The position numbers and the translations under genes were made by a program. Positions 11,335 through 28,189 of a stretch of DNA of 64,000 nucleotides are shown here, in pieces (the stretch's first letter is position 1; every line of letters starts with the position of its first letter). This stretch comes from a virus, in IMG/VR virus record IMGVR_UViG_3300048694_001252, positions 1 through 64,000 of that record; one strand, given 5' to 3'. The notes under the pieces were generated by a model that worked only from the letters and a program-made list of their open reading frames with translations, was not told where the DNA came from and did not search any database.

Positions 11335-11787
11335 TTAGACCCGAATATCTTCCATGCCGGCCGTGCGCAACCTAACGATATGACCCAGTTGCCACTGTTT
11401 GGTATCCAGACCTTTCATGATACCCAGCCAGCGATTGCGCAACAGAGCTACTTCGTTGATGATAGTTTCGTGATCCACCACTTCGTCCTCACCGTCCACG
11501 TACTTTTCAGCGTCACGGCTGGTTAGCGCTCGAGCATAGCCTTCCAGATACTTCTTGAAGTGCTGACGGCGTATCCGCCTCAGCTGGATGTTCAGGTAGT
11601 TGAGCACCGCTTCAATCTCTTGCAGCTGATTGAAACGATGCTCGGTCACACCCGGAAGCTCTTTGATGTTGGTTTCCACGTGACCTGAGATACGGCATTC
11701 CTGTCTTGCACCTTCTAGCTCATTTTCGTAATGGGCTATAAAGTCAGGGATGGCACCCAGGCTCGCGACAATACGGCTATACCACAT
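11335..11787 (-). CDS. uvsY: UvsY-like recombination mediator
   Basis: 150 aa helical protein, SRDAEKYVDGE...LRTAGMED; sits downstream of uvsX. Confidence 0.75.
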   Translation of the reverse strand: MWYSRIVASLGAIPDFIAHYENELEGARQECRISGHVETNIKELPGVTEHRFNQLQEIEAVLNYLNIQLRRIRRQHFKKYLEGYARALTSRDAEKYVDGEDEVVDHETIINEVALLRNRWLGIMKGLDTKQWQLGHIVRLRTAGMEDIRV

Positions 11788-12035
11788 CAGTGATCCTGAT
11801 CCTCGTCATCAAAATCCTCATCTTCGACGTAGTCATCATCCTCGGCGTCGTCAAGGTGTGCTGCTAGAGCCTCTTTCATGTCGGGATCACTACCAAATGC
11901 CGCACGTATGTCAGCGGCATCAAGATCATGATCGATCATGACACTGAGCACCGTGTCAGCTGCTTCGGCACGATCGTGCGGATTCACATAGCGTTTGATC
12001 TCGCTCCAGATGTCGGCTACCAATTGTTCACTCAT
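11787..12035 (-). CDS. Small, very acidic hypothetical protein
   Basis: 82 aa, D/E-rich tail; coupled to both uvsX and uvsY. Confidence 0.75.
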   Translation of the reverse strand: MSEQLVADIWSEIKRYVNPHDRAEAADTVLSVMIDHDLDAADIRAAFGSDPDMKEALAAHLDDAEDDDYVEDEDFDDEDQDH

Positions 12036-13093
12036 TCTGCTTCCTCCTCTGTGACATCGGTACTTACCTCAGTACGGAGATTTGCAAAATCTGCCATGAG
12101 TCGATCCAGACAACCTTCTTCGTTGCTTTCCCAGGCCTTGCGGAACAGTTTGGTAACTTCCCCGGTGCTACTCACAAACATCAGCCTATTGCCGTCTTTC
12201 TTGAGGATGTTTTTCTTCTCGGCCAGATCCACCAGTCCCGAGTAAGGGTTCATCCCAGTTTCGTACGGTATCTTGACCTGCACACCTTCAAAGGGTTTGG
12301 CATAGCGTGTTTTCATGACCTTGCAGGCAGCGCGGATACCCATGACATCCGAGATCTTGTTGCCATCCTCATCTTCCTTGAGCTTGAGCTTCTTCATGGC
12401 CACCACGATCGAGCTGGCATAGATAAAGCCTTGTCCGCCCGAGATCTTGTCATCGGGATCAAACATGTCTTGGCTGGCATAGGTATGGTTGGTACACACC
12501 AGGCCCACATTGTAGTTGCCAAACATGTTGACACAGTTACGAACCAGGGCCGTGAGCGCCTTGGGTTTGCGCCCAAGATCACCTTTCATGTCACCGGCTT
12601 CAAACTGGTTGATGTCCGTGGGTGTGAGCAGCATGCCCAGGCTGTCAATCACGAACAACACCTTGGGACGCTCGCCATCGGGCAGGGCCTTGTAGTCGGT
12701 CATGAATGTGCTGATGGTCTTGGCCACGTCGTCAATCATGCTCATACTAAGTTTGAGCAGTTTGCTTTCGCTGGTATCTACACCCAAGGCCGTGAGCCAG
12801 GCTTCGTCTAGTGCGTTCTCGCTGTCCACCAGCACAACAAAGATTCCCTGCTCTTGGGCGTTCTTGATAATGTTACCGGAACAGATGTAGCTCTTGCCCG
12901 CGCCTGATTCACCCGCAAACACCGCGACCTTGCCCAGCGGAATACCGCGAGTAAAGTCACCGGATATCAAGTAGTTGAGGGCGTAGTTGCCGGTCGAGAT
13001 CCAGTCTGTGGGATCATTGAAACCGATGGTGAGTCCATCGATTGATTTGGTTATTTCCTTGCGGAAACGTGAAACGTCAAAGGGTTTTCCCAT
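12032..13093 (-). CDS. uvsX: UvsX/RecA-like recombinase
   Basis: Walker A GESGAGKS, DSENALD, VIDSLGML, SGGQGFIYASS. Confidence 0.95.
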   Translation of the reverse strand: MGKPFDVSRFRKEITKSIDGLTIGFNDPTDWISTGNYALNYLISGDFTRGIPLGKVAVFAGESGAGKSYICSGNIIKNAQEQGIFVVLVDSENALDEAWLTALGVDTSESKLLKLSMSMIDDVAKTISTFMTDYKALPDGERPKVLFVIDSLGMLLTPTDINQFEAGDMKGDLGRKPKALTALVRNCVNMFGNYNVGLVCTNHTYASQDMFDPDDKISGGQGFIYASSIVVAMKKLKLKEDEDGNKISDVMGIRAACKVMKTRYAKPFEGVQVKIPYETGMNPYSGLVDLAEKKNILKKDGNRLMFVSSTGEVTKLFRKAWESNEEGCLDRLMADFANLRTEVSTDVTEEEAE

Positions 13094-13103
13094 AATTCAC
13101 CTG

Positions 13104-13139
13104 AAAAAGAAAGAACTGCGGGGTGGTTAGCCCCGCAGT
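13104..13139 (-). terminator. Rho-independent terminator after gp32
   Basis: ACTGCGGGG-7 nt-CCCCGCAGT followed by TCTTTCTTTTT on - strand. Confidence 0.8.
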
Positions 13140-13150
13140 ATGCGTCAATG

Positions 13151-14167
13151 TTACTGCGTCTTTTGACGAGCCCGGATCATGGCCAGGATGTCCTGGGCGC
13201 TCTGACCACCGCCACCTGCTGCGGCTGCTGCGGGTTTCTTCACAGGCTCGGCTGCGGCCGGAGCCTCATCGGCATCAAAGGGCGGGTCATCTGCTGCGGG
13301 TGCTGCCGATGATGCCGGTGCTGCCTGAGCTGCCCGAGCTGCAGGTGCGCTCTCGCTGGCTGCAGGTGCCGAACTGCCCGGTGCTGCCACTCCCGCGGGG
13401 CGGAAATACTGACCCCAGCGTTCGGCATCATAGGGCTGTCCATCGACCGAAGCCTCGAACATCTCTTTGATGACCCGGAGTTCGACTTCACCGGGGCGCT
13501 TGGGCAGGAACGTGCTGAGATCATAGAGACCATATTTTTCAATGGCCGCTTGTTCCTCGGCTGTGAGAGCCGATTCCTTGCGACTCCATTTGCTGGTGTT
13601 GTAGTCAGCAAAGCCGCCTTTCATGGTCTTGGTGATAGTGAAATCCAAGCCACGCATGACGTCGGTGGGCAGTTCTTCCAGCTCGGGATCCATCAGGGCC
13701 GATTTGATGATTTGGAAGATCTGGGGGCCGATGATAAAGCGTCGGATGGGATTTTCCGGGCACTTGTCATCGCTCAAGGGGTTTTTGCGGACGAAGCCTT
13801 GGAAAAGATAGCTGCGCTTTTTCCAATACTTACGACCCATGTCTTCAAGGCTCTTGTCCTTGAACCAGTTGCGTACTTCTGCCAAGATCGGGCAAGCATC
13901 GCCCCACATTTCCACACAGGGCACTTGGACCATGACCTGTTTGGTTTCTGCTTCGCCTTTGACGCCGGCAAAGGGCAAGCGGATCATGGCCCGTTCGACC
14001 CAGAAAAATGTGTTTTTGCTGTTGCCGTCAGCTAGGAAACGGAATGATGCGGATTGACCTTCTTCCATGTTCCAGTGGGGATAAATGGAATTGTCGCCGC
14101 CTTGTGAATTACCACCTTTTGTTTCTGCTGCCTGTAGACGCTGCCTAATTTCTGCTAAAGATGCCAT
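13151..14167 (-). CDS. gp32: Single-stranded DNA-binding protein, T4 gp32-like
   Basis: RFL, C..CPI, YWKKRSYLFQG, G.DF...KT..GG.ADY..S.W; Ala/Pro/Asp-rich linker near C-terminus; next to uvsX. Confidence 0.88.
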   Translation of the reverse strand: MASLAEIRQRLQAAETKGGNSQGGDNSIYPHWNMEEGQSASFRFLADGNSKNTFFWVERAMIRLPFAGVKGEAETKQVMVQVPCVEMWGDACPILAEVRNWFKDKSLEDMGRKYWKKRSYLFQGFVRKNPLSDDKCPENPIRRFIIGPQIFQIIKSALMDPELEELPTDVMRGLDFTITKTMKGGFADYNTSKWSRKESALTAEEQAAIEKYGLYDLSTFLPKRPGEVELRVIKEMFEASVDGQPYDAERWGQYFRPAGVAAPGSSAPAASESAPAARAAQAAPASSAAPAADDPPFDADEAPAAAEPVKKPAAAAAGGGGQSAQDILAMIRARQKTQ

Positions 14168-14301: not shown

Positions 14302-16467
14302 CTACTTTGACAAAGCTAGTGCTTTTATTCTCGCCAGATCTTCATAAAAACTATCGGTTACTGCTCCGCGGTGGTCCATGGAATCAGTTGAGTCTTCGTT
14401 TGGACCCGAAAACGTGGCCAGATTATCGCCTTCGGCCATATCTTCATCGTCATCCCAACCTTTGGCTTTGCTAGGAAAATAACGATGTACCGCTCTATCA
14501 TGACTTGGTACCAGCTTCAAGCGACTGGGAGAAATATACCAACCACGTCCATCTTTGTCTTCGATTCGAACACGACGATCATATGGATCACCAATCATTC
14601 TGAATACTTCACCGCCGTCACCATCCATTTCGTCACGTACAAAACAACCATCGTAAAGTTCAGTATCGTCGTATTCGCCTTCCGCCACACCTTGCTTCGT
14701 ACGTTTCTTAGCTTGCTGAGACCGATTATAATCATCCAGCGAAACAATTTTAAAGTTAAAAGCGTCGAGCGAATGTCTACCACCACTCATGCGAGTTAGG
14801 TACGATTTTGCGGCTGCTATTGAAGGGAACGCGCCGCCGTGCATTGGATAGTTCTGGGAACGTAATCCAGTTTTAGGGTTTACCAAAACATATCCACTGG
14901 TATCTAAATATCTTCTACTGTTTTCCTCCATATCTTTTTCTTTGGGTTTAGGTACAGGATTACCAGCTAAATCTTTGTCACCGATGTAAACTCCCCGTTC
15001 ATCATGGCTTAGCGGATTCTTTTCAAACGGTTTGCCTTTACGTGCTGCTTGGGCTGCTTCCACATCCTGCATGGCATCTTGCCAATAGCCTTCCGCCATG
15101 GGCTGCTGTGGTTGCGCAGCCGGCTGTGCCACCGGTGCAGCAGCCGGTTCAGGCGAGGGTTCTGCGGCAGGCGCGGGTTCAGGCGCGGGTTCTTGGGCTT
15201 GGGCATCAAGATCGACATCAACTCCGTTTTCTTCCAACCAGGCCTCGATCACGGGCGCGGCATCAGCATCGGCACCGTTGGAACGGCTGAGATTCTGTAG
15301 CCGGTCACGCAGATCATCCAGCATCTGATGATCCTCAGGATCATCGCGATCATAACCTATGATATCTTCCAGCTGAGGTATCACGTTCATGCCATCTTCA
15401 CCCACTGCTAGAGGTTTTTTGGCCAGCAGTTCCTGGATTTGATCCACTGCTTCATGATCATGGGCTAGGTCACTGAGACCTTCTGCCACTGTGTTGACCC
15501 AGTTTTCAAATATATCAGCTTCTTTCATGGCAGTTCCTTGAATACGTGCCAGCAAAGGCAATGCTGCCTCTACTCGCGTATCGATATGCTGCTCCACAAA
15601 CATGTCTCTGAGATTTTCTACCAGAGTATCAGCCGCAGTGATCTCAGCTGGCTGCCAGGATTCGAAATATCGACCATAACCACGACTGTGACCTAACTGC
15701 TGGAGATTGGAACGTAGCTGTTGATAGTACTCGCGGGCCTGTTCTACCAACTGTTGCCGCTGCCCTTCCAGTACCTGACCCTGGTGTGCACGATGGAATC
15801 GAGCCAGCACCTTCATTTCCTGGATTATTTCGGCTATGTGCTGACCGCGTATGTCATAGGGACGACCACCCTGGCGCACATGTTCCAGCATGGCGCGACC
15901 GCCTGCGAGATTGGTAAAAGGCAAAAGGAAGCGCTCACCATCCTGGGTTTCCACAAACAGTTTTTCCACATAGCGATAGCGAGCATCAGTTTCGCCTAGA
16001 GTGCGATTGTGTCGTATCATGAGTCGGGCCTGGGTGGGCTGTCCCATGTAGCTGACCTGGCGCGTACCATAATAACTTTCAAATAGGCTTTCCGAAATAG
16101 CCGACATGCTGGCCATGTAGTGCTTGAGATTACTGATATTTTGTGGGCTGAATGTGTTGAAGCCGTTGTGCGTGGCAAATTGTCCCAGTTGATGCAGGAA
16201 ATCATACCATTCGTCTTTGTCCCGGGGGGATTCCATGCTGCGTCCCATGCTGTCCCCAAAAAACAACAGTAATTCTTTGTCATCACTCAGGATCAACACA
16301 GCATTGCCATAATCGCGGCCACCGCTGCTGCGATAATCAAACCGTATGATATGCGCTTTTGATGGTGTGACATCTTGCCCGGTCCGGGGGTCTTTGGTAA
16401 CGGGATCAAATCCCCGAGTGACCAAAAGGTCATAAAGTCTTTGGGCTACTGTTTGTGTTTGTGCCAT
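14302..16467 (-). CDS. Probable virion head protein; N-terminal core plus C-terminal modules delimited by AEG/MEE motifs
   Basis: 721 aa; TAAATA 7 nt upstream; TVAEG, PMAEG, DMEE, QGVAEG, DMAEG sites; AT-rich C-terminal part. Confidence 0.7.
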   Translation of the reverse strand: MAQTQTVAQRLYDLLVTRGFDPVTKDPRTGQDVTPSKAHIIRFDYRSSGGRDYGNAVLILSDDKELLLFFGDSMGRSMESPRDKDEWYDFLHQLGQFATHNGFNTFSPQNISNLKHYMASMSAISESLFESYYGTRQVSYMGQPTQARLMIRHNRTLGETDARYRYVEKLFVETQDGERFLLPFTNLAGGRAMLEHVRQGGRPYDIRGQHIAEIIQEMKVLARFHRAHQGQVLEGQRQQLVEQAREYYQQLRSNLQQLGHSRGYGRYFESWQPAEITAADTLVENLRDMFVEQHIDTRVEAALPLLARIQGTAMKEADIFENWVNTVAEGLSDLAHDHEAVDQIQELLAKKPLAVGEDGMNVIPQLEDIIGYDRDDPEDHQMLDDLRDRLQNLSRSNGADADAAPVIEAWLEENGVDVDLDAQAQEPAPEPAPAAEPSPEPAAAPVAQPAAQPQQPMAEGYWQDAMQDVEAAQAARKGKPFEKNPLSHDERGVYIGDKDLAGNPVPKPKEKDMEENSRRYLDTSGYVLVNPKTGLRSQNYPMHGGAFPSIAAAKSYLTRMSGGRHSLDAFNFKIVSLDDYNRSQQAKKRTKQGVAEGEYDDTELYDGCFVRDEMDGDGGEVFRMIGDPYDRRVRIEDKDGRGWYISPSRLKLVPSHDRAVHRYFPSKAKGWDDDEDMAEGDNLATFSGPNEDSTDSMDHRGAVTDSFYEDLARIKALALSK
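14678..14694 (-). repeat. 17-bp QGVAEG repeat, copy 1 (CAAGGTGTGGCGGAAGG)
   Basis: Exact match to the copy at 24566-24582. Confidence 0.9.
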
Positions 16468-16477
16468 AGTAAGCTAT

Positions 16478-18049
16478 TTAGCGTAAAACTGCAAAGAAGG
16501 GCATGGGTTCAATTATGGAATCAGTATGATCCTTGATCTGTTGATCCAACTCAGCATGGTAGGTCTGTAACAGCATCAACATTCGTACGATCAGGATGGT
16601 AGACATGACCAAATCATCGGTTTCACCCGGCTTGGCTGCATAGCTCACACCGTGCGCCACAAAGGTCTTGAGCTCGCTTATGAGTGGTTTGCTGTGTATG
16701 ATCATGCGACGACTTTCCAGCAGCACCTTGAACTTGTTACAGGCCGTGATCTTGCTCTTGGGCGTGGTGTTGAATCCTTTGCGCCATCGACGTTGTCCTA
16801 TCACGGAATTGTCCGATAAGAAATAGCCCTGGATGTTTTCCTCACCGTATTCCGATATCGAGATCAGGGCCGCTTCGCCTATGGTGTTGTTTTCCACGGA
16901 GTAATAGATGCTCTGCGGATCCTTGACCACGCTGTTGATTTCACGCACGATGTCGGCCAAGATACGTACTTGTTCGGGGATGGTAGTACGATTATGTTGC
17001 CACTCGGCCACTTGTTCGGTGGTGCCGGCTTCAAATACCTGGATGGCCGCGGGATCTCCACCGGTGCCCAGGCTGGGATCCAAGGACACCACATAGATGC
17101 TGTTGGGGCGTATGTCACGATACCAACGAACCTGCCCGGTTTTGCGCAGGGGTTCGCGACCTTCTAGATCGATCAAGGTAGTGGGTGCTATCAAGGTCTC
17201 ATCGTTGATGATGAATTCGCACTGCATTTCGCGACGGAATCGATCGTCGCCCAGCTGGGCACGTTGTTCATCGGCCCAGGCCTGATCACGATCGGGATGC
17301 TCATGCCAATAACTCCGGAAAGCCCGGAAACCATTGATACCCAGTTCCGTGGTATTGCCAAACTCATCTAGGCATTTGTTGGCACCTTTCCACAGGAACG
17401 CAAACTGATCTTCATCCGAATTGGGTGTGCTGGTAATGATACATTTACCGCCTGTGGATAGCGTGGGCGCTATGGAAGTCCAGAATTCTCGACCTATGGT
17501 GGGACGCACGAATGCGAACTCGTCAGCATACAGTAAAGAAATACTCATACCCCGACCTGTGGTCTCTGTGGTTGTTTGGCTTACTATGCGGCTACCGTTT
17601 TCAAATTCCAGGCTGCCCTTGTTGTAGCTGGTACAACCGGCTCGTATATGGTTTGGGCACAGCTCATAGGCATAGCGTATGCGCTGCATGATTTCCTGAG
17701 CACCGGTATACTTGTGAGCCGCTATCAAGATCGTGCTGTCCGGAACGAACATGGCGTACCAGAGCAGATATCCCGCGGCCGAAGTTGACTTGCCGGTCTG
17801 GCGCGGCATGAGGCTGATGCTGTTGCGATAGTTGTGATATGTGTCGATCAGACGCTTCTGATAATCAAACGGATGATATACCATCTTGCCCCGGGTAGGA
17901 TGCTGGATGTAGAAGAAGTTGTCCAGGAAATACTGTGGACCGGTCACCGGATCGGCGCAGAGAGCAAATTCTTGAATCTCTTGTTCGGTATATCTTTCGC
18001 GGCGATGCGGACTTTTTACCAGTACTGTTTCAAGTTGGTTGCGTTGCAT
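16478..18049 (-). CDS. gp17: Terminase large subunit (T4 gp17-like)
   Basis: PRQTGKS Walker A, LLYADEFAFV Walker B, ITSTPN, RNase H-like DPSLGTGGD and DDLVM. Confidence 0.95.
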   Translation of the reverse strand: MQRNQLETVLVKSPHRRERYTEQEIQEFALCADPVTGPQYFLDNFFYIQHPTRGKMVYHPFDYQKRLIDTYHNYRNSISLMPRQTGKSTSAAGYLLWYAMFVPDSTILIAAHKYTGAQEIMQRIRYAYELCPNHIRAGCTSYNKGSLEFENGSRIVSQTTTETTGRGMSISLLYADEFAFVRPTIGREFWTSIAPTLSTGGKCIITSTPNSDEDQFAFLWKGANKCLDEFGNTTELGINGFRAFRSYWHEHPDRDQAWADEQRAQLGDDRFRREMQCEFIINDETLIAPTTLIDLEGREPLRKTGQVRWYRDIRPNSIYVVSLDPSLGTGGDPAAIQVFEAGTTEQVAEWQHNRTTIPEQVRILADIVREINSVVKDPQSIYYSVENNTIGEAALISISEYGEENIQGYFLSDNSVIGQRRWRKGFNTTPKSKITACNKFKVLLESRRMIIHSKPLISELKTFVAHGVSYAAKPGETDDLVMSTILIVRMLMLLQTYHAELDQQIKDHTDSIIEPMPFFAVLR

Positions 18050-18066: not shown

Positions 18067-18771
18067 CTATCTAAACGCGAAACGAAATCCCGTGGCCTGT
18101 TCCACCGCTTCCACCGTGACCTGATAGCGTGGCAGATCGGCCACGGGCAATGCGGTGTTGGGCAGCAGATAGGCCACGGTCTGGCCATTGGCTCGGTTGT
18201 GCAGGATCTTGTACAAGCGTGTGGGTATGCCCAGACCGTTGCCAGTTACCGGATGTCCAGCATCAAAGATGCCGCCCGAAATTACATACCAATCCCCGCC
18301 CTTCTCGGCCCAATCCCGCTCCCAGGTCTCCAGCTGTTTCCAGATTCCGCGGTTGTTGTTGGCCACCTGTGCCACCATGTTTGACAGGAAGAAACTCTCA
18401 CTCATGATCTGGTCGTTCTGGGTATTGTTGCCCGCGGGAGCCATGTGACCTCGGTCGTGTGTTTTGCCCACTGTGGCATAGTCGGCCAAGGTGGCCTGGC
18501 AGTTGGCTGTAACGGCCGGATCGGCACGGAAGTTGTCTTTACGCTTGGCCGGACCGGTCATTGCGGCCACTGTTAGATGTTCAAACACTGCCACAGGTGC
18601 TTTCACACTGCAACGATGGATCACGGCATAATTGGTTTTACACAGTTCTTGATCTCCCGGCTGTGCTTGATAAGCCGGTGTGCCATGGCTGGTAAATTGC
18701 GGGCATTGGCTGTTGATCTGTGCCCATGAGCTAAGAGGCACACACAATAAAAAGAATAGTATTTTTTTCAT
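18067..18771 (-). CDS. DNA/RNA non-specific endonuclease (NucA/Serratia type) with signal peptide
   Basis: DRGHMAP, ESFFLSNM..Q....NRGIWKQLE, IPTRLYK; N-terminus MKKILFFLLCVPLSSWA. Confidence 0.88.
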   Translation of the reverse strand: MKKILFFLLCVPLSSWAQINSQCPQFTSHGTPAYQAQPGDQELCKTNYAVIHRCSVKAPVAVFEHLTVAAMTGPAKRKDNFRADPAVTANCQATLADYATVGKTHDRGHMAPAGNNTQNDQIMSESFFLSNMVAQVANNNRGIWKQLETWERDWAEKGGDWYVISGGIFDAGHPVTGNGLGIPTRLYKILHNRANGQTVAYLLPNTALPVADLPRYQVTVEAVEQATGFRFAFR

Positions 18772-18789
18772 AGTTCGATCTTTCATAGT

Positions 18790-21472: not shown

Positions 21473-21867
21473 CGTGCGTATCCTGCAAAAGGTCGTACAG
21501 GACTGTTTCGGTGCACATAATCAGGTTCACGGCTGCGATTGTCCGTGAGTTTGTTCACGCGACCTGCCTGCACCATCTGGGCGGCAGCATTGATGATTTC
21601 CATGTCAACATCACTATAACAGGCCAACAGGGGATCGCCCGCAAAGGCGCCCGCAGGTGGCGTAGGGTAATCGGGTGCACCGGCCATGGCGATACTGAAT
21701 CGCCACTGGGTATAGGGACTGCCGCCCTGCTTGTTGCTGCTGATATCGGGCATGCTGATCGCGCCCTTGATAGTTGTACGGTGCGAATGCGGCAGTTTGC
21801 GAGAGCTGGCCGGCACATCTGCGGCTCTACCGTAGCGTGTTTCTGTTACAAATTCTCGTGCTCTCAT
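21469..21867 (-). CDS. MRAREF paralogue 2, putative internal head protein
   Basis: MRAREFVTE...SPVRPFAGYAR; ATGA overlaps. Confidence 0.8.
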   Translation of the reverse strand: MRAREFVTETRYGRAADVPASSRKLPHSHRTTIKGAISMPDISSNKQGGSPYTQWRFSIAMAGAPDYPTPPAGAFAGDPLLACYSDVDMEIINAAAQMVQAGRVNKLTDNRSREPDYVHRNSPVRPFAGYAR

Positions 21868-22745
21868 TTGCCATCATCTCCTAGATGCATGTGACTGAAG
21901 GGTTTGGTACCGCGATTCTTCTGCCATAGCAGTCTATTACTTAGTATTTCGACCCAGACATTGGTATCAGGACGATTCAAGCGCCAGAAATCAAACTCGA
22001 TATGGCTGCTGACCGGACGACAGTAGAGAGTACGCTCCCGGGGCACACATAGCTGCTGGCTGGTGGTGCGAAATTTCTTGGGTTCGGTACTGTATCGCAT
22101 GATGTTCAGCTGCGGGTTTGGGATGTTGATCTGGCACATGCCATCCACGAGATCCTGGGGAGTACGGGCGTCACGTACCACCTGTTGAGCCTGTAGCAGT
22201 CGAGCTCGACTGCTTATGCGATCCTGGGTCTCTTGCGTGTTTTTGGCGTTGTTTTGGAATCCGGCCCAGGGCAGCCAGATGCCGTGATTGGTACGAGCCA
22301 CCAGTTGCGTGTGCGGAATCAATTTTACTTTAGATCTATAGGGTCTACGTCCATCTTGATCGCCGGCTTCTATGAGATACAGTGTTTCTTGATCAAACAC
22401 CATGGTGCAGCCACCCAGCTTTCCCTGGATCAGGACGTCAACTGCGGGTTTGACTTCGCGCTCGAGCAAGGCCCGAGCAATCAAGCGACCATCCGGGCTG
22501 GTATCGGCTTCACCTTGTTCAATGGCTCGTTCGTCTGTGTACACATCCAGGCTGGTATTGAGTATGCTGATGCCCTGACTGTTGATACCTTCTTTGTAGC
22601 CGGTCACACGATCATGCATCATCATGCGTGACACGCCCCGCTCGGTACTTTCGATAAAGTCCAGGCGCGGTACGTAGTTACGATCTCGATTCTTGGCCCC
22701 GGCCCACCCAATCCCGGGAAAGTATCGGGCCACGATTATGCACAT
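21864..22745 (-). CDS. N-terminal nucleophile (Ntn) cysteine hydrolase, NRDE/C45-like
   Basis: Cys2 after Met, KNRDR, EGINSQGI, RTNHG, S..R. Confidence 0.75.
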   Translation of the reverse strand: MCIIVARYFPGIGWAGAKNRDRNYVPRLDFIESTERGVSRMMMHDRVTGYKEGINSQGISILNTSLDVYTDERAIEQGEADTSPDGRLIARALLEREVKPAVDVLIQGKLGGCTMVFDQETLYLIEAGDQDGRRPYRSKVKLIPHTQLVARTNHGIWLPWAGFQNNAKNTQETQDRISSRARLLQAQQVVRDARTPQDLVDGMCQINIPNPQLNIMRYSTEPKKFRTTSQQLCVPRERTLYCRPVSSHIEFDFWRLNRPDTNVWVEILSNRLLWQKNRGTKPFSHMHLGDDGK

Positions 22746-22747
22746 GG

Positions 22748-23128
22748 CTAGCGCCCATATCCGGCAAAAGGTTTTACCGGACTCTGTACCTGCACATCCG
22801 ACGTTTCACGACTGCCTTTGCTCACGTAATCATGCGGCTTCATTTTCAAATGCTTCATGATGGCCATGAGCTTTTCACGGTCATAGTCGGTATAGGCGCT
22901 GAACAGTGGTAGATTGCCGCAGAAACTCAGCTGATCAAGTTCTTTGAGCTTTTTGGGATCCATGCCGGCCAAGGAACTCACACGATAAAAATCATAATAG
23001 CGACCCCAGTATACGTCGCCCGATCCCGAAGGTGCTACCAGACCGGGATGCGCGGTTTCAAATTCCGGTGCGGCCGCTGTTCTGCTACCGCCCCGAGGCG
23101 ATTCAGTAATGAACTCGCGGGCGCGCAC
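22748..23128 (-). CDS. MRAREF paralogue 1 (GTG start), putative internal head protein
   Basis: VRAREFITE...SPVKPFAGYGR; GTG 2 nt after the upstream stop. Confidence 0.75.
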   Translation of the reverse strand: MRAREFITESPRGGSRTAAAPEFETAHPGLVAPSGSGDVYWGRYYDFYRVSSLAGMDPKKLKELDQLSFCGNLPLFSAYTDYDREKLMAIMKHLKMKPHDYVSKGSRETSDVQVQSPVKPFAGYGR

Positions 23129-23130
23129 AA

Positions 23131-23424
23131 TCAGTAGCTTCCCAGGCCGATCACACCTGCTGTGGCCGAACTGGCTGTGCCCAGTTCCAGGGCCGTCCAG
23201 TTGCTGCCGGTTATGGTCACATGATTGCCTGCGCCTGAATAGAGATCTCGCGTGGCATTTGCCGGCACCTGTATGGCCGCGCTGTAGATGTTGCCCACAG
23301 GTGAGGCCGATCCCAGGGCCACGGCATAGACCTGATAGGTCACTGCGGTGTTTCCGGTACTCACACGCAGCTTGTCGGTGTACACTGCGGCGTTGCCCAG
23401 ACTGGTATAGACATTGGCGCTCAT
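23131..23424 (-). CDS. Small beta-rich probable virion protein
   Basis: 97 aa, A/G/S/T/V-rich; AAGGA SD; ATGA overlap. Confidence 0.65.
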   Translation of the reverse strand: MSANVYTSLGNAAVYTDKLRVSTGNTAVTYQVYAVALGSASPVGNIYSAAIQVPANATRDLYSGAGNHVTITGSNWTALELGTASSATAGVIGLGSY

Positions 23425-23600
23425 TTGTGATTATCCTTGTTAGTGGTTCCGGTATAGGGTTGATACAGTTTACGGGTCTGGTCCAGCACACCTGGGATGT
23501 CTACCGGTTGTGGTTGTGCAACCGGGGCTACCGGTACTGTGCGGAAAAGATCCCGGGGCTGATTGTTTTCAAAATTCATACGGATTCGATCTATAGTCAT
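23421..23600 (-). CDS. Hypothetical protein (59 aa)
   Basis: Start MTIDRIRMNF 4 nt after the upstream stop. Confidence 0.55.
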   Translation of the reverse strand: MTIDRIRMNFENNQPRDLFRTVPVAPVAQPQPVDIPGVLDQTRKLYQPYTGTTNKDNHK

Positions 23601-23604
23601 GATA

Positions 23605-25557
23605 TCACCAGGCTCGGCAGCTCCAATATCTGGCTTTCCAACGCGGACCAGGATTGGCACAGTTGTGGCGGGCCCGGAAGCTCTTGCGGCGTTTTGGGTT
23701 GGATTTTTTGATGCGCATCTTCTTGTCACCAAAGTTGACCTTGACCACATTGCCTTTGGGACCTTTCACATACACTTTGCTTTTCTTTACATCTCCGGCC
23801 ATGGGCTTGCCCAGGGGTACTTCACGTCCTTGGTATTTGGCTTCCATGGGTGCAGGATCATCTACGTCGTATGGATCTTCCGCATTGTGCTGTTTAGCGT
23901 CACGTGAGTCCCACTGTGCTTGTGCATCCTGTTCAGCAGCCTGCTGATATTCTGGGCTGTAGTCTGGATCAGTGATTAGATACTGAATCATGTGATCGTC
24001 AACTTTAGCAGCAATATTGTTACCAGTTACGTCACCACCAGTTAGTTTAACATGTAAATGTCCGGTTTGTGGATCAGGTGTAGCGATATAATTTACATAT
24101 CCTTCTACTTCTTCACCATCGTCACCAATCCAGGTAACATCTGTGCTGCCTTCAAAACTTTCAGGATCGAATCCTTCGTTTTGCAGATGTTCCTCCACGG
24201 TTTCGGACAAGGGTGTGGTCTGAGGTTCTAGACCAGCCAATTCTTGTATGCGGCGCAGGGTTTGATCCGCTTCCGCCACACCTTGCTCTTGGCTCTCACC
24301 AAAACGAAACTTAGGGGCGGCACGTAACAACATTGCCACACCTTTATCAAATTTTGCGCGGTCGTAAAATTTCCCGTTGTTGATACTGGCTAAAATCGTT
24401 TTGACGCCAGGTATTCCCAGTAGTTGATTGGACATAAAATATGTTCTGCCACCTGCGGCCGCATCAACTAAATCCAACAAATCTTCGGGGTAAAGACGAT
24501 CTTCATTTTTTGGTGATCCATATTTGGCCCAGATTTTTTCTGCGATACGTTTTGCTTGCGAAGAGCCTTCCGCCACACCTTGTTCTCTATATTTCTTGGC
24601 GACATCTATTTCAATATCACCGTTGCCATTGCGCTCACTCCAGGCTGCAAATCGTTTTCCGTTGATAGTAACCAATTCACCACTTGCATTGGAAATATAT
24701 TCTGCATTGTCATCTAGCAACTCACGGTTAACACGATTTACATCACGCAACCACTTTTCATGGTTTCCGTAGGTCTCAAATCTTTTCTGCAATAAATCTC
24801 TAGTATCAACTGATGGCAAATTTACTCCAGAACGTGGCCCAAGCATATAATCGCTGGAACTTAAACTACCTGGCAAGCCTGCCTCCGCTACACCTTGCTC
24901 ATTGACATTATCTCTGACATATAATGTATCTTTGGGGAATTTTGCGATCCACTTAGCACCGGCTGGAGTTATCTTGTAAATCCCATCCAACGATGAGATT
25001 ATACCCTTTTTTACTAATTTTGGTAGGAATCTTTCCAGGAAATCTCTTTTGATAAACACATTGCCATGAAGCGCACTGGCTAATTTACGTCCAGACAATC
25101 CAGAATCTTCGACCTGCTGTAACTGTAGTAACGTTCTTGCGACATCTTTTCGATTGAACGTATGTTGAAACTTGCCTTCCGCCACACCTTTGACATGCCA
25201 AGTTTTATGGCATTGATGGCATTCTTTCTCACCATCACTGTAGGTTTTGATGTCGGTACTGTAACAGCCTGGGCAATGTGTACTGGTGGTGGGTTTGGCA
25301 CCGGTACCTGACTTTGTCTTGGGTTCTGGTTCGTTCTTTTGATCTTGGGCCATGCCTTGCTCTTCCAGCAGTCCATAGCTTTCCAAGATCCGCATCATGT
25401 CTTCGTCTGCGGCCAAGACCACACCATCTTCCACAACGTCAACTATGTGTGACTCTACCAGGCATTCTTCACGGATGTTTATGGCAAAGTCATCACCCAC
25501 GGCCGGTGCTGCGACCCAGGATTCTGCTTCGTTGATATGGTCTCGCAGTGTTTTCAT
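23605..25557 (-). CDS. Modular polyprotein with QGVAE-delimited cassettes and a basic C-terminal RRKSFRARHNC...ARYWSCRAW domain
   Basis: 650 aa; MKTLRDHINE N-terminus; EQGMAQ, KGVAEG, EQGVAEA, EQGVAEG, EQGVAEA separate unrelated modules. Confidence 0.8.
   Translation of the reverse strand: MKTLRDHINEAESWVAAPAVGDDFAINIREECLVESHIVDVVEDGVVLAADEDMMRILESYGLLEEQGMAQDQKNEPEPKTKSGTGAKPTTSTHCPGCYSTDIKTYSDGEKECHQCHKTWHVKGVAEGKFQHTFNRKDVARTLLQLQQVEDSGLSGRKLASALHGNVFIKRDFLERFLPKLVKKGIISSLDGIYKITPAGAKWIAKFPKDTLYVRDNVNEQGVAEAGLPGSLSSSDYMLGPRSGVNLPSVDTRDLLQKRFETYGNHEKWLRDVNRVNRELLDDNAEYISNASGELVTINGKRFAAWSERNGNGDIEIDVAKKYREQGVAEGSSQAKRIAEKIWAKYGSPKNEDRLYPEDLLDLVDAAAGGRTYFMSNQLLGIPGVKTILASINNGKFYDRAKFDKGVAMLLRAAPKFRFGESQEQGVAEADQTLRRIQELAGLEPQTTPLSETVEEHLQNEGFDPESFEGSTDVTWIGDDGEEVEGYVNYIATPDPQTGHLHVKLTGGDVTGNNIAAKVDDHMIQYLITDPDYSPEYQQAAEQDAQAQWDSRDAKQHNAEDPYDVDDPAPMEAKYQGREVPLGKPMAGDVKKSKVYVKGPKGNVVKVNFGDKKMRIKKSNPKRRKSFRARHNCANPGPRWKARYWSCRAW
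24269..25191 (-). repeat. Array of four 17-bp direct repeats spaced 297/315/294 bp, separated by unique AT-rich in-frame inserts
   Basis: Copies at 24269-24285, 24566-24582, 24881-24897, 25175-25191; core AAGGTGTGGCGGAAG exact in three, with two synonymous changes in the 24881 copy. Confidence 0.9.
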
Positions 25558-25559
25558 GG

Positions 25560-27575
25560 TTAGGCCTTATATGCTTTCCACAAGCGAGTCATGTCCTGGA
25601 GACTGGACTCAAACGCTTGATTTTCTTTATTGCTGCTGAGTTTATCCTGTAGGGCCTTTCCCGCCATCTGACCTGCCAGGCTTGCAGCACCTCGTGTCAG
25701 TGCACTGGCACCGGATCCCACGGCAGTGCGAGCTAGAGCAGCACCAATAGCCGGTAACACTTCGTCTAGTTTTTGGTCTTTTTCTGCTGCGGCTTGTGTC
25801 ATGGGCTCTTCCCGATCACCATCTTGGTCGATGTCCAAGAAATCGGGTTTAGCAGCTTCCTGCACCCCGGCCAGTTCCCGGATACGCTCCAGGCTTTCGT
25901 CCATGGGCCGATCACATTCGCATTTGCTTTCGTACATGCCACATTCCATGCATTTGTTTTCGTCGAGATCTTCGGTTTCCTGCACACGCACCGCAGTGGT
26001 AGGCATCACGGTCTGACCATCGCCAGCAACATCAGTCTTGGGTTTGTTGACACCACCTGAGTATTGCAGGGCATCGGAGTTTGTTTCGGTGTTGGTGGGC
26101 CATTCCGGTTGATTTTCATCTACCTGCGTGGCACAGGCACAGGGCTCTTGACCACAGCTGGGGCAGGCATGTGAATCCGGGGTGTGCGGCATGACCCCCA
26201 CACCAGCACGTTTTAGGAGCTCAATCAAATCACCTGCATCTTCTTCGGTGGCTGTGACTGTGACTGAATCATTGCCTTCGCTACTGCGGCTGATGTTTAC
26301 GCTCATGCTTTCAGAGATCATGGCTTCCAGTTCACGGTTCATGCTGTCATAGATGCCTTTACCATACTGCATTTTACCACCCGGAGATTTCTTGGGGACA
26401 TCCGCGGATTCTGACTTGGCTCGCGGTGCCGGGGCTGTCGCGACCGATCCCGCTACTGTGGAAGTTTCTTCCACTTCTTTTTTCTTGGTGGGCAGACCTT
26501 TTTCTTTGGTAGCAGCAAACTTATGCAGTTCCTTCTTGCTCATCTTGGCCATCTCTCGGCTGGCACCGCGTAGTTCGGATTTGGGGATTTCACCCTTCTG
26601 TGCCGCATGTGCGATGCCGGCAGCGCGACGCTGGGCCACGCTCACGGCTTTTTCACCCAGTGGTTGTTCCTGGCCCTCTTCACCAGTGGCCATTTCCCCA
26701 TCACGTTCGTGTTGGGTCTGCATGTAATCATCCACAGTGGACATCATGCCTTCGATCTTGGTCAACTTCATTTGTACCCATTCAGGCAAATCCTCGCGAT
26801 CGGCCAGGATCTTTTCCAGGGCCTGGGCATGACGCACGATAGTATGGATCTGATCCTTGGCTTGATCGCCTTCGTTGCCGTATTCGCCCGCATCATCAGG
26901 CTGGGCTCCGGGTGGTAGCTCCTCAGCTATGGCGCCTTTGCGATGCAGCTTGGATGTGCCCTTGACCTTGGCTCCGATTTTTTTGCCCCGGCCGGCACCC
27001 ACGGCCTTGCGGCCCATATGACGTGGCTCACCGTCGTCTTGGTCATCGGCATCGGGTTCATCTGTCTGGCTCGCGCCACCATAGCGTTTGCCCTGCACTG
27101 ATTTTACCGGCAGATCGGCCAGTTTGAGTTCTTCGACTTTATGGGTGGCAGGCTTTTTCTTGGTTGTCTTTTTGACTACCTGCAGCACACCCTTGGCATC
27201 ACGCCGGAGAGTTTCTTGGCCACCAGATGCTTTTTCCACTGCACGGGTCAGATCGGGTGCTAGATCTCGACCACTGACCTTGGTCTTGGCCTTGGGCGGT
27301 TGGTTGAACGAAGAAGATTTACGCACACCAAACTTGTCATAGTCATCGCTGCTGAAGGGTTTTGGTTTGCCTTCCTCCACACCTTGCTTGGCCTGGCGAG
27401 CCGCTTGCTTCATGGGTTCGTGGCGATTGCCATCTTGGTCCAGATCCAAAAAATCAGGCTTGGCCGCTTCGCCTACTTTGTGGCGCAGTTTGTCCAACAC
27501 AGCACCTTCTGTGAGCTGTTCCTTGCCTTGGGCCAGTTTGGCCAACTTTTTGTTCATGTCGTAAAAAAATGTCAT
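25560..27575 (-). CDS. Modular probable prohead core/internal protein (DUF3008-like segment, two DxDxDG repeats, LPEWVQ helix module)
   Basis: 671 aa; AAKPDFLD(L/I)DQDG twice; AVSVAQRRAAGIA...LRGASREMAKMSKKEL..FAATKEKGLP; many (L/I/V)xE sites. Confidence 0.75.
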   Translation of the reverse strand: MTFFYDMNKKLAKLAQGKEQLTEGAVLDKLRHKVGEAAKPDFLDLDQDGNRHEPMKQAARQAKQGVEEGKPKPFSSDDYDKFGVRKSSSFNQPPKAKTKVSGRDLAPDLTRAVEKASGGQETLRRDAKGVLQVVKKTTKKKPATHKVEELKLADLPVKSVQGKRYGGASQTDEPDADDQDDGEPRHMGRKAVGAGRGKKIGAKVKGTSKLHRKGAIAEELPPGAQPDDAGEYGNEGDQAKDQIHTIVRHAQALEKILADREDLPEWVQMKLTKIEGMMSTVDDYMQTQHERDGEMATGEEGQEQPLGEKAVSVAQRRAAGIAHAAQKGEIPKSELRGASREMAKMSKKELHKFAATKEKGLPTKKKEVEETSTVAGSVATAPAPRAKSESADVPKKSPGGKMQYGKGIYDSMNRELEAMISESMSVNISRSSEGNDSVTVTATEEDAGDLIELLKRAGVGVMPHTPDSHACPSCGQEPCACATQVDENQPEWPTNTETNSDALQYSGGVNKPKTDVAGDGQTVMPTTAVRVQETEDLDENKCMECGMYESKCECDRPMDESLERIRELAGVQEAAKPDFLDIDQDGDREEPMTQAAAEKDQKLDEVLPAIGAALARTAVGSGASALTRGAASLAGQMAGKALQDKLSSNKENQAFESSLQDMTRLWKAYKA
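27370..27386 (-). repeat. 17-bp repeat copy (CAAGGTGTGGAGGAAGG, QGVEEG)
   Basis: One mismatch to the consensus. Confidence 0.8.
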
Positions 27576-27580
27576 TGCAG

Positions 27581-28189
27581 TTATCCTCGAGGTTGGGCGC
27601 CGGTGGCCGGCTTGGGTGGACGTTTGATATTGGCGAAGGGACTCTTATTTCCCTGTGGCAGTTCATTGGTGGTCTTGGCAGGCGGTGTCTTCTTACCGGC
27701 CACGGTGAAATCTGAACGGTATTGATTCTTCAACACCACATGGTCATGCGGCTCCGCACTGTAGTCTTTTTTGAGACCTTTTTGTACACGATCCGGTTCC
27801 GGTAGATCAGTATTCTTGAGCAGATCTCGATTTTCATCTTTGATTTTCTCATACTCATCCACCATGCTGTCGTTGTAGTCCCGGGTGGTCATGACCACAC
27901 GATTGGGATCAAACTTCAACAGTTGCATCAGCTGTTTGATCTGGGGCTCGATCGCGGGGTAGCGGAAGCTCACATCAAACATGGTCACGCTATCGTTTTG
28001 AAAATTTGGGAAGTCTGTGGGTATGGCCTGGATCGGCGTGGTACGTGTGTCACTCATGCGTACCGGATCAAATTGATCCAATTTTTGCTTGAGCTGTCGG
28101 ATCAGCTCTTCGGGTACTCGACCGCACAATTTGATGCGATAATCGTAGGTTCTTTCGCTTTCAGCTAGGTATTTTGCAAATGGTTTCAT
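27581..28189 (-). CDS. Hypothetical head-region protein with capsid-targeting-like N-terminus
   Basis: MKPFAKYLAE; TAAATA at 28208-28213 and AAGGA SD. Confidence 0.75.
   Translation of the reverse strand: MKPFAKYLAESERTYDYRIKLCGRVPEELIRQLKQKLDQFDPVRMSDTRTTPIQAIPTDFPNFQNDSVTMFDVSFRYPAIEPQIKQLMQLLKFDPNRVVMTTRDYNDSMVDEYEKIKDENRDLLKNTDLPEPDRVQKGLKKDYSAEPHDHVVLKNQYRSDFTVAGKKTPPAKTTNELPQGNKSPFANIKRPPKPATGAQPRG

Follow-up and report, generated by a model that had tools for sequence, protein, structure and literature searches.

A short in-frame repeat between small protein modules of a giant phage: candidate exchange junction and putative prohead protease site

Why should the same short DNA sequence recur in frame between unrelated segments of a single phage gene? 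The question is raised by a stretch of 64,000 nucleotides of viral DNA (positions 1 to 64,000 of the IMG/VR record IMGVR_UViG_3300048694_001252; hereafter, the window), in which the gene for the 650 aa protein P0001 occupies positions 23605..25557 on the minus strand. A preliminary description of this DNA, made from the letters alone, proposed that the repeat delimits an integron-like array of cassettes within a virion polyprotein and serves both as recombination site and as protease site. The analysis reported here leads to a modified version of this proposal, namely that arrays of small modules within one open reading frame (ORF) are exchanged at the linker DNA, and that the peptide encoded by the same linker is a protease site; we assign this interpretation a probability of about 0.6.

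The repeat, a 17-mer written CAAGGTGTGGCGGAAG(G/C) on the minus strand, was scanned for as CAAGGTGTGGCGGAAGS with up to two mismatches, and six matches were detected in the window, all on the minus strand, compared with 0.06 expected (maximum 1) from window shuffles; elsewhere on the contig, which is 115,246 bp long, no additional good copy was detected. The four sites in P0001 from which the preliminary description started (24269, 24566, 24881 and 25175), with their spacing of 297, 315 and 294 bp, were recovered, and two additional sites came to light at 14678 and 27370. In the direction of translation, copy 1 of P0001 (25175..25191, one mismatch) encodes KGVAEG, copy 2 (24881..24897, two mismatches, with GTA and GAG variants) QGVAEA, copy 3 (24566..24582, exact) QGVAEG, and copy 4 (24269..24285, an exact 17-mer) QGVAEA. 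A decayed fifth copy (EQGMAQ; 25344..25363, minus strand), which belongs to repeat family D1 and scores 80% to the reference copy, is located where the N-terminal domain meets cassette 1. Of the two sites outside P0001, one lies in the adjacent protein P0002 (27370..27386, one mismatch, QGVEEG) and the other in a 721 aa protein (14678..14694, exact, KQGVAEGE). Altogether, the linker is present in three late genes, always in frame, and encodes (Q/K)GV(A/E)E(G/A), its canonical 18-nt form being CAA GGT GTG GCG GAA GGC, that is, QGVAEG. As originally stated, the segments between the copies are mutually unrelated, and their guanine plus cytosine (GC) content is 37-47% against 50-62% in the flanks, the cassette region being AT-rich like the phages of ~40% GC that carry the same cassettes. 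The accompanying remark on codons, that the repeat uses GCG where backbone sites use GCA or GCC, is correct for the repeat copies, for TVAEG (GCA) and for DMAEG (GCC), but not for PMAEG, which also uses GCG.

In a model of P0001 built by AlphaFold2 on a 66-sequence alignment, the protein appears as a string of beads, at aa 1-66, 93-121, 134-208, 254-327 (predicted local distance difference test, pLDDT, of 90+) and 333-415, followed by the C-terminal domains, and all four linkers fall within stretches of pLDDT<50 between the beads (123-133, 209-253, 328-332 and 416-430 for copies 1 to 4, respectively). The conserved N-terminal domain (aa 1-66; 25360..25557, minus strand, as for all parts of P0001; pLDDT 83-94) ends in YGLLE/E, is 43-81% identical across ~35 homologues, and is a possible targeting domain; its DNA homology to the relatives ends at 25360-25373. 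The four cassettes that follow are in-frame pieces of one ORF, without start or stop codons of their own. Cassette 1 (aa 67-127; 25177..25359) is a CxxC...CxxC zinc-ribbon module (the zinc-ribbon matches are weak) with 87-91% nucleotide identity to the loci L001-L004, where the match ends at the repeat; the homology to L001 and L002 begins at 25348, and in the proteins P0047 and P0051, the same module has a linker on each side. Cassette 2 (aa 128-225; 24883..25176), a winged-helix-like module modeled as helices plus a hairpin (HTH_45, E=0.0016, below the Pfam cut-off), shows 95% amino acid identity to P0003, with a match that stops precisely at E225. Cassette 3 (aa 226-330; 24568..24882; pLDDT 90-97 over aa 254-327) is an alpha/beta module from a six-member family (family 0) that has five distinct left and six distinct right neighbors, and is flanked by the linker on both sides in P0015 and P0023. 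Cassette 4 (aa 331-429; 24271..24567) is a helical module, also from a six-member family (family 1), with 80% amino acid identity to P0010, where it is again bounded by linkers on both sides.

The conserved C-terminal part of P0001 starts with an LRRIQELAGL peptide followed by an acidic domain (aa 430-571; 23845..24270), which aligns to ~25 homologues, and ends with a domain (aa 572-650; 23608..23844) that is preceded by P-M-E/A and matches phrog_7595 at 1e-8. Among cultured aquatic phages, C48C1 and the pelagiphage HTVC008M encode the phrog_7595 domain as a small gene of its own (L187:5923-6240 and L188:5863-6264 among the cited loci), whereas in Methylophilales phage Melnitz, it is the C-terminus of a mosaic protein of 650 aa; the ESM Atlas clusters that match it are exclusively viral, unnamed, and contain thousands of members. 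Apart from phrog_7595, comparison of the whole protein and of each module with Pfam and PHROGs yielded only the weak zinc-ribbon and winged-helix indications and no match to known effectors, and a Foldseek search of the PDB with the whole model gave nothing at E<=0.001. An internal translation start or a frameshift at the linker was considered as well and rejected, since neither a suitably spaced start codon nor a slippery heptamer is present.

A homologue search across 5.8 billion proteins identified 72 relatives of P0001 (370-1124 aa), each covering 6-39% of it, often at 60-97% identity, and nearly all with several QGVAEG copies, nine at most. What these homologues have in common with P0001 is confined to ~66 aa at the N-terminus and ~230 aa at the C-terminus; in between lies a mosaic, with BLAST boundaries at the linker in both partners. 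The 41 complete orthologues in IMG/VR, chosen by their N-terminal peptide, range from 155 aa, where only the N- and C-terminal domains are present, to 773 aa, and contain no linker (28), one (8), two (4) or three (1). In a broader set of 243 non-redundant linker-bearing proteins, there are 271 internal modules with a median length of 78 aa (50-110 aa), which form 208 families, including 169 singletons, and in the multi-member families almost all neighbors are different. The number, order and identity of the cassettes accordingly differ between orthologues, as the preliminary description had anticipated, and are not identical and collinear.

Given that all the data are metagenome assemblies, one could ask whether the arrays are artefacts, arising from chimeric assembly at a short repeat or from a repeat that occurs by chance. 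Single copies of the 17-mer do occur in cellular genomes at about the chance rate (at least 120 matches compared with ~70 expected for 596 Gb, by our own calculation); the search of genome contigs gave such single matches in high-GC cellular genomes and neither arrays nor a clue to the host. However, 17-18 nt is below the k-mer length of assemblers, the arrays remain in frame, P0001 itself is seen on four contigs, hundreds of contigs, assembled from many different samples, show this arrangement, and a reversed-pattern control gave 0 matches against 13, in line with the shuffles of the window described above. We consider an artefact extremely improbable.

If modules are exchanged at the linker, regions of high similarity between otherwise different genes should end there. 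All-against-all comparison of 181 linker-bearing ORFs at >=85% nucleotide identity, many of them from loci chosen for holding an exact 16-mer of the linker and in pairs that are not phylogenetically independent, yielded 132 internal match ends, 39 of which lie inside the 18-nt linker and 49 within 3 nt of it, whereas random placement gives 3-4% (maximum 8%). Several single cassettes of 165-190 nt with 95-97% identity are bounded by linkers on both sides. Furthermore, a segment at 14932..15098 (minus strand), within the gene for the 721 aa protein, recurs at 93% nucleotide identity in another phage, where it is part of a different carrier gene (L001:10410-10576); the left breakpoint of this match is inside TGGCGGAAGGC, and the right one coincides with a second V/M-x-E site, DMEE here and DVAE in L001. 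Both this segment and the zinc-ribbon cassette are far more alike than the surrounding genes, indicating that they were exchanged recently. Thus, two expectations of the preliminary description, that exchange breakpoints pile up inside the repeat and that one cassette can be found in two different carrier genes, are borne out.

The linker is conserved not only as a peptide but also at its silent sites. In four relatives with 40-46% GC, it is almost always spelled AAGGTGTGGCGGAAGG(C), and the exact 16-mer is present in at least 120 IMG/VR stretches of 30-51% GC, where, among the matches listed, it is in frame within a long ORF in 109 of 112 cases. The non-exact linkers in the same ORFs also favor the same codons, with GGT in 58/64, GTG in 44/56 and GCG in 49/64, against a GCG background of 7%. 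In an unbiased sample of loci that were picked by protein patterns only (including 77 metagenome loci; 31-55% GC), the core GGTGTGGCGGAA was found in 32 of 53 distinct GVAE linkers, compared with 0.6% expected from the codon usage of the same ORFs; GCG was used in 39 of the 53 (background, 8%), the third position of GGT was T in 47, and glutamine was encoded by CAA in 32/32. As a control, the invariant peptides REECLxE, KSFxARHxC, VxFGD, YWSC and ELAG in the same genes show ordinary silent variation. Moreover, at 10 pairs of junctions with homologous but diverged flanks, pairs that are few and not phylogenetically independent, the codon is shared at 36/40 linker positions vs 72/175 identical flanking residues, which indicates active maintenance of the linker sequence rather than simply a young age. 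The repeat is therefore conserved at its silent sites far beyond codon usage, and the codons of QGVAE do not vary freely across homologues.

The persistence of the codons at old, diverged junctions points to purifying selection on the sequence itself, and it is conceivable that the nucleotides are kept for a direct function in RNA or DNA, for example to form a structure or to make ribosomes pause where domains meet, with exchange as a by-product of sequence identity. The locked core GG-TGT-GG-C-GG-AA-GG conforms to the pattern of a two-tetrad G-quadruplex, the third-position Gs on which the second and third GG tracts depend come precisely from the two rare locked codons, GTG and GCG, and the G-quadruplex mode of ViennaRNA predicts such a structure for the isolated 18-mer, with -1.4 kcal/mol (37 C) and -9.7 kcal/mol (15 C); AGGTG also reads like a Shine-Dalgarno sequence. 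Nevertheless, positions in the loops and outside the tracts, for which a G-quadruplex has no need, are locked too (the T of GGT and the CAA codon, see above), the QGVAEA copies lack the fourth GG tract and have no predicted G-quadruplex, and with 20-nt flanks at 37 C, the G-quadruplex is absent from the minimum-energy fold. Neither a start codon nor a slippery site follows the motif, and the in-frame location of the 16-mer ties the DNA motif to the peptide. On balance, a direct nucleic acid function with incidental exchange seems quite unlikely to us. A further-reaching version of the exchange interpretation, which we put forward tentatively, holds that the linker is a selected, dual-coded recombination site within a protease site, part of an integrase-free "protein integron" of giant T4-type phages, by which cassettes from an environmental pool of hundreds of mini-proteins would enter head-cargo genes in frame, and the product would be loaded into the capsid as a single chain, cut and delivered to the host. 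If so, the persistence of the linker at old junctions would reflect selection for exchangeability, possibly aided by a G-quadruplex-prone sequence that initiates recombination.

The tightness of the lock, which exceeds what recombination through short homology alone seems to need, and the size of the site, 17-18 bp being typical of the sites of homing endonucleases and recombinases, could also speak for a dedicated sequence-specific enzyme, either an integron-type integrase or a homing endonuclease. However, no match to Phage_integrase (PF00589) or Resolvase (PF00239) was detected in the contig itself (33% complete) or in four relatives, of which two are 97-99% complete, and the controls did match; homing endonuclease families were not searched. 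The junctions are direct repeats of 17-20 nt with no associated inverted repeat or attC-like structure, and nearly every site is an in-frame part of an ORF; from these features and the search for the two recombinase families, we view a dedicated enzyme as very unlikely. The lack of a tyrosine or serine recombinase and of an attC-like palindrome also implies that the array is not an integron, the more so as the cassettes are segments of an ORF and not genes. Accordingly, the label "integron-like" cannot be retained in its strict sense, whereas the interpretation of the segments as cassettes is upheld by their variation, the breakpoints at the linker, the cassette with two carriers and the conservation of silent sites. 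General recombination machinery that could act on short repeats is encoded in the window, with homologues of UvsY, UvsX and gp32 at 11335..14167 (minus strand; phrog_231, phrog_97 and phrog_1192, with RecA and gp32 Pfam matches).

What would the linker do at the protein level? The T4 prohead protease gp21 cleaves after L/I-X-E (PMC9026906), and gp245 of SPN3US cleaves after A-X-E, in some proteins several times (PMC10052503). Among 482 distinct linkers retrieved with the pattern G[VIL]AE, by which P4 (G), P2 (A) and P1 (E) are fixed, P5 is Q in 63%, P3 is V in 92%, L in 5% and I in 3%, and P1' is G in 67% and A in 12%; Val at P3 departs from the Leu/Ile of the L/I-X-E rule. A Peptidase_S77 prohead protease (3.9e-23) is encoded beyond the window, at 76805-77449 of the same contig (G000:C1), adjoining the genes for the scaffold, the Gp23 capsid protein and the T4 portal, and each of five large related contigs (180-344 kb; completeness 97-99% for two) also encodes an S77 protease. 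In the proteome of the 115-kb contig, there are 15 sites of the form [VLIM]AE[GAS], in seven proteins, six of which are of the head module or virion type: the 721 aa protein, P0001, a 202-aa phrog "virion structural" protein, the scaffold, an acidic core-like protein and a lysozyme-domain protein. Given the encoded S77 protease, the fit to L/I-X-E, the position within predicted linkers and this near-confinement to head-module proteins, we infer that V-A-E is a candidate site of the prohead protease. Domain boundaries that lack the linker hold simpler sites of this kind (YGLLE/E, IDE/A and PME/A).

Regarding the individual proteins, the 202-aa virion-type protein (27581-28189) has YLAE/S at aa 8, and in the region G000:C1:75700-83311, VVAE/S is found in the scaffold, PMAE/A in the acidic core-like protein of 310 aa and ALAE/G, at aa 75, in the lysozyme-domain protein of 929 aa; these proteins are likely to be additional substrates of the protease.

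The similarity of V-A-E to a protease site might, of course, be coincidental, with the linker acting as a flexible spacer in proteins that stay intact or are not located in the head, even if the exchange is real. Short x-x-E motifs are common, the predicted site of the capsid protein (L-K-E) and other candidate sites are unlike QGVAEG, and P0001 itself has no match to a virion-protein family in Pfam or PHROGs. A spacer, however, hardly accounts for the (near-)invariance of Glu at P1 (fixed by the search pattern) and of Val at P3 in the 482 linkers, for the distribution of [VLIM]AE[GAS], for the S77 protease in all relatives tested, or for the L/I-x-E-type sites kept at linker-less boundaries, and the genes in question, with phrog "virion structural" proteins as neighbors, occupy the region from the terminase to the genes for tail tube and sheath. 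A mere spacer thus appears doubtful to us.

With respect to entry into the head, a peptide of the LxRIQELAGM type follows a V/I-x-E site in 26 of 243 proteins of the family, LxRIxELAG(L/M/V) stands after such a site in both P0001 (24229-24258) and P0002 (25863-25892), and the scaffold (G000:C1:75700-76791) ends in ELKRLAGL. Such RIQELAGL-type peptides may be candidate prohead-docking peptides common to scaffold and cargo.

Taken together, these observations are consistent with the following scenario. Small, independent modules would be inserted in frame into a carrier protein of a giant phage with a T4-type core. The linker DNA, an identical short sequence across many genes and phages, would be the place where cassettes are exchanged, inserted and deleted, most likely through the general recombination of the phage acting on short homology during co-infection, with no dedicated recombinase. 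The encoded peptide would be an exposed V-A-E/G site for a gp21-type (S77) protease, so that the chain would be cut into separate mini-proteins inside the prohead, which it might enter by means of the conserved N-terminal domain or of the RIQELAGL peptide that resembles the scaffold C-terminus. Delivery into the host and any role as effector or in anti-defence are speculative. The components of this scenario with direct support are the bead architecture, the variation of the arrays, the codon lock, the breakpoints at the linker, the cassette with two carriers, and the presence of the protease and of UvsX, UvsY and gp32.

Several points weigh against this scenario. For homologous recombination, 17-18 bp would be a short stretch, and recombination alone does not explain the lock at old junctions. 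The six-residue linker is conserved beyond what a protease like that of T4, with its L/I-X-E rule, should need, which, on the other hand, fits a constraint at the DNA level. The motif is absent from the cultured relatives HTVC008M, Melnitz and C48C1, and the 17-mer was not found in deposited phage genomes, where blastn with the linker and short flanks gave only chance-level matches; the absence of a virion-family match for P0001, and the sampling of the breakpoint and old-junction pairs described above, belong here as well. Finally, a 295-bp segment within the conserved C-terminal part of P0001 (23887..24181, minus strand) is 96-97% identical to L001 and L002 (40-41% GC), where its counterpart is the C-terminus of another protein, P0006, and neither breakpoint of this match coincides with a linker. 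By this comparison, modules evidently move by other routes too, and the linker would be the principal, though not the sole, route of exchange.

The other two linker-bearing proteins of the window are probably carriers too, less extensively than P0001. P0002 (671 aa; 25560..27575, minus strand) is another bead-on-string protein, with a DUF3008 domain at aa 310-365 (1.8e-16), a family otherwise known as small stand-alone proteins, and two AAKPDFLD(L/I)DQDG modules, each preceded by Glu; the synteny of P0001 and P0002 is kept in the relatives. The 721 aa protein (14302..16467, minus strand), a phrog_13484 "virion structural protein" adjoining the terminase, has its C-terminal third split by TVAEG, PMAEG, QGVAEG and DMAEG. 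In searches against deposited phages, megablast with P0001 and P0002 returned nothing, and tblastn returned the C-terminal domain only.

The contig is a fragment of a giant phage with a T4-type core (33% complete according to IMG/VR and CheckV); among cultured phages, Pseudomonas jumbo phage PA5oct and its kin have the most similar capsid proteins (67% identity). The carrier genes are placed between the large terminase (16478-18049) and the tail tube and sheath genes (29.5-35 kb), and the neighbors of P0001 match phrog families of virion structural proteins. A gene for a non-specific DNA/RNA endonuclease (Endonuclease_NS, 2.4e-37; 18067-18786, minus strand) is located between the large terminase and a gene for a 635-aa protein, and a run of small genes extends from the latter to P0001 (20733-23491), of which the two that were scanned (21864-22745 and 22748-23491) gave nothing in Pfam or PHROGs. 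The T4 late promoter TATAAATA is uninformative here (one match vs 0.8 expected). Beyond the window, an ORF of at least 3774 aa (G000:C1:103924-115246, plus strand) runs off the contig end.

If the proposed dual role is real, these phages would have a simple route to multi-protein payloads, in which a single short sequence makes modules exchangeable as DNA and separable as protein. There would be a large, unexplored pool of phage mini-proteins, with 208 families among 271 modules in a small sample, that are candidates for host take-over and anti-defence, and the idea of T4 internal proteins and capsid targeting would extend to giant phages of freshwater and marine habitats. The linker could be used as a natural, standardized "part junction" for loading foreign proteins into capsids, and the codon lock is a clean, directly testable case of selection on silent sites within a coding region.

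None of the known systems that we compared with these arrays unites a translated, codon-locked junction, a predicted protease site and free number and order of modules, and a full-text literature search for GVAEG together with phage returned no paper. Motif-mediated modular exchange was reportedly described in 1998 by Tetart and coworkers for the His boxes of gp37 in tail fibers. In the gp38 adhesins of T-even phages, short in-frame glycine-rich motifs likewise separate variable segments that are swapped between phages; there, however, the motifs are structural parts of one folded domain, fixed in number and order, and the segments are loops (PMC3157838), whereas here whole independent domains vary in both respects, and the motif, at which cleavage is predicted, is codon-locked across phages of 30-55% GC. 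The PeSL cassettes of T4-type phages are similar in that many short conserved copies mediate insertion, deletion and replacement of modules by recombination, with mini-circles as possible transfer intermediates, but they are intergenic promoter-plus-terminator units that move whole genes (PMC2839356), whereas the present linker is intragenic, in frame and translated.

Polyvalent proteins, too, consist of many unrelated domains on a single chain, have their genes close to those for packaging, and are predicted to be packaged, proteolytically processed and delivered with the DNA (PMC5512222; Iyer et al., 2017). Their domains are recognizable as enzymes or effectors (MuF, ART, metallopeptidase, etc.) and often include a peptidase of their own, in contrast to the modules described here, which match no effector and would be processed by the prohead protease at a uniform linker, with a lock at the DNA level that has no counterpart there. 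The head and ejection proteins of phiKZ, 201phi2-1 and SPN3US come from giant phages as well, in which a gp21-related protease cleaves many of the head proteins after Glu, some of them at multiple sites (PMC10052503; PMC9026906); those sites are short and variable (A-X-E or S/A/G-X-E), serve mostly for propeptide removal, and are neither repeated DNA elements nor boundaries of modules shuffled between phages. With integrons, the arrays have in common that they are expandable and consist of exchangeable cassettes drawn from a large shared pool, but an integrase, attI, attC and promoterless gene cassettes are lacking here, such that the resemblance is an analogy only.

Among the compared systems are also the internal proteins of T4 (IPI, IPII, IPIII and Alt) with their capsid-targeting sequence (CTS), which share with the present case a T4-type head and a gp21-family protease, that of T4 cutting after Glu (PMC3012670; PMC9026906). 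The T4 internal proteins form a highly diverse, fast-changing set of small proteins, presumed to enter the prohead and to be ejected after their release by the protease (PMC3012670; PMC9026906). In both cases, a conserved element, the CTS in T4, is attached to unrelated cargo that is highly variable between related phages. Packaging and ejection have been demonstrated for T4, whereas for the arrays described here they are a proposal. The T4 proteins are encoded by separate genes, each with an N-terminal leader of ~10 residues, whereas here many cargos are joined in one ORF behind a folded N-terminal domain of 66 residues, and the shared element is an internal linker that is repeated between cargos and fixed at the DNA level. 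The N-terminus of P0001, a conserved and confidently folded domain ending in YGLLE/E, is not itself a CTS but may be its functional analogue.

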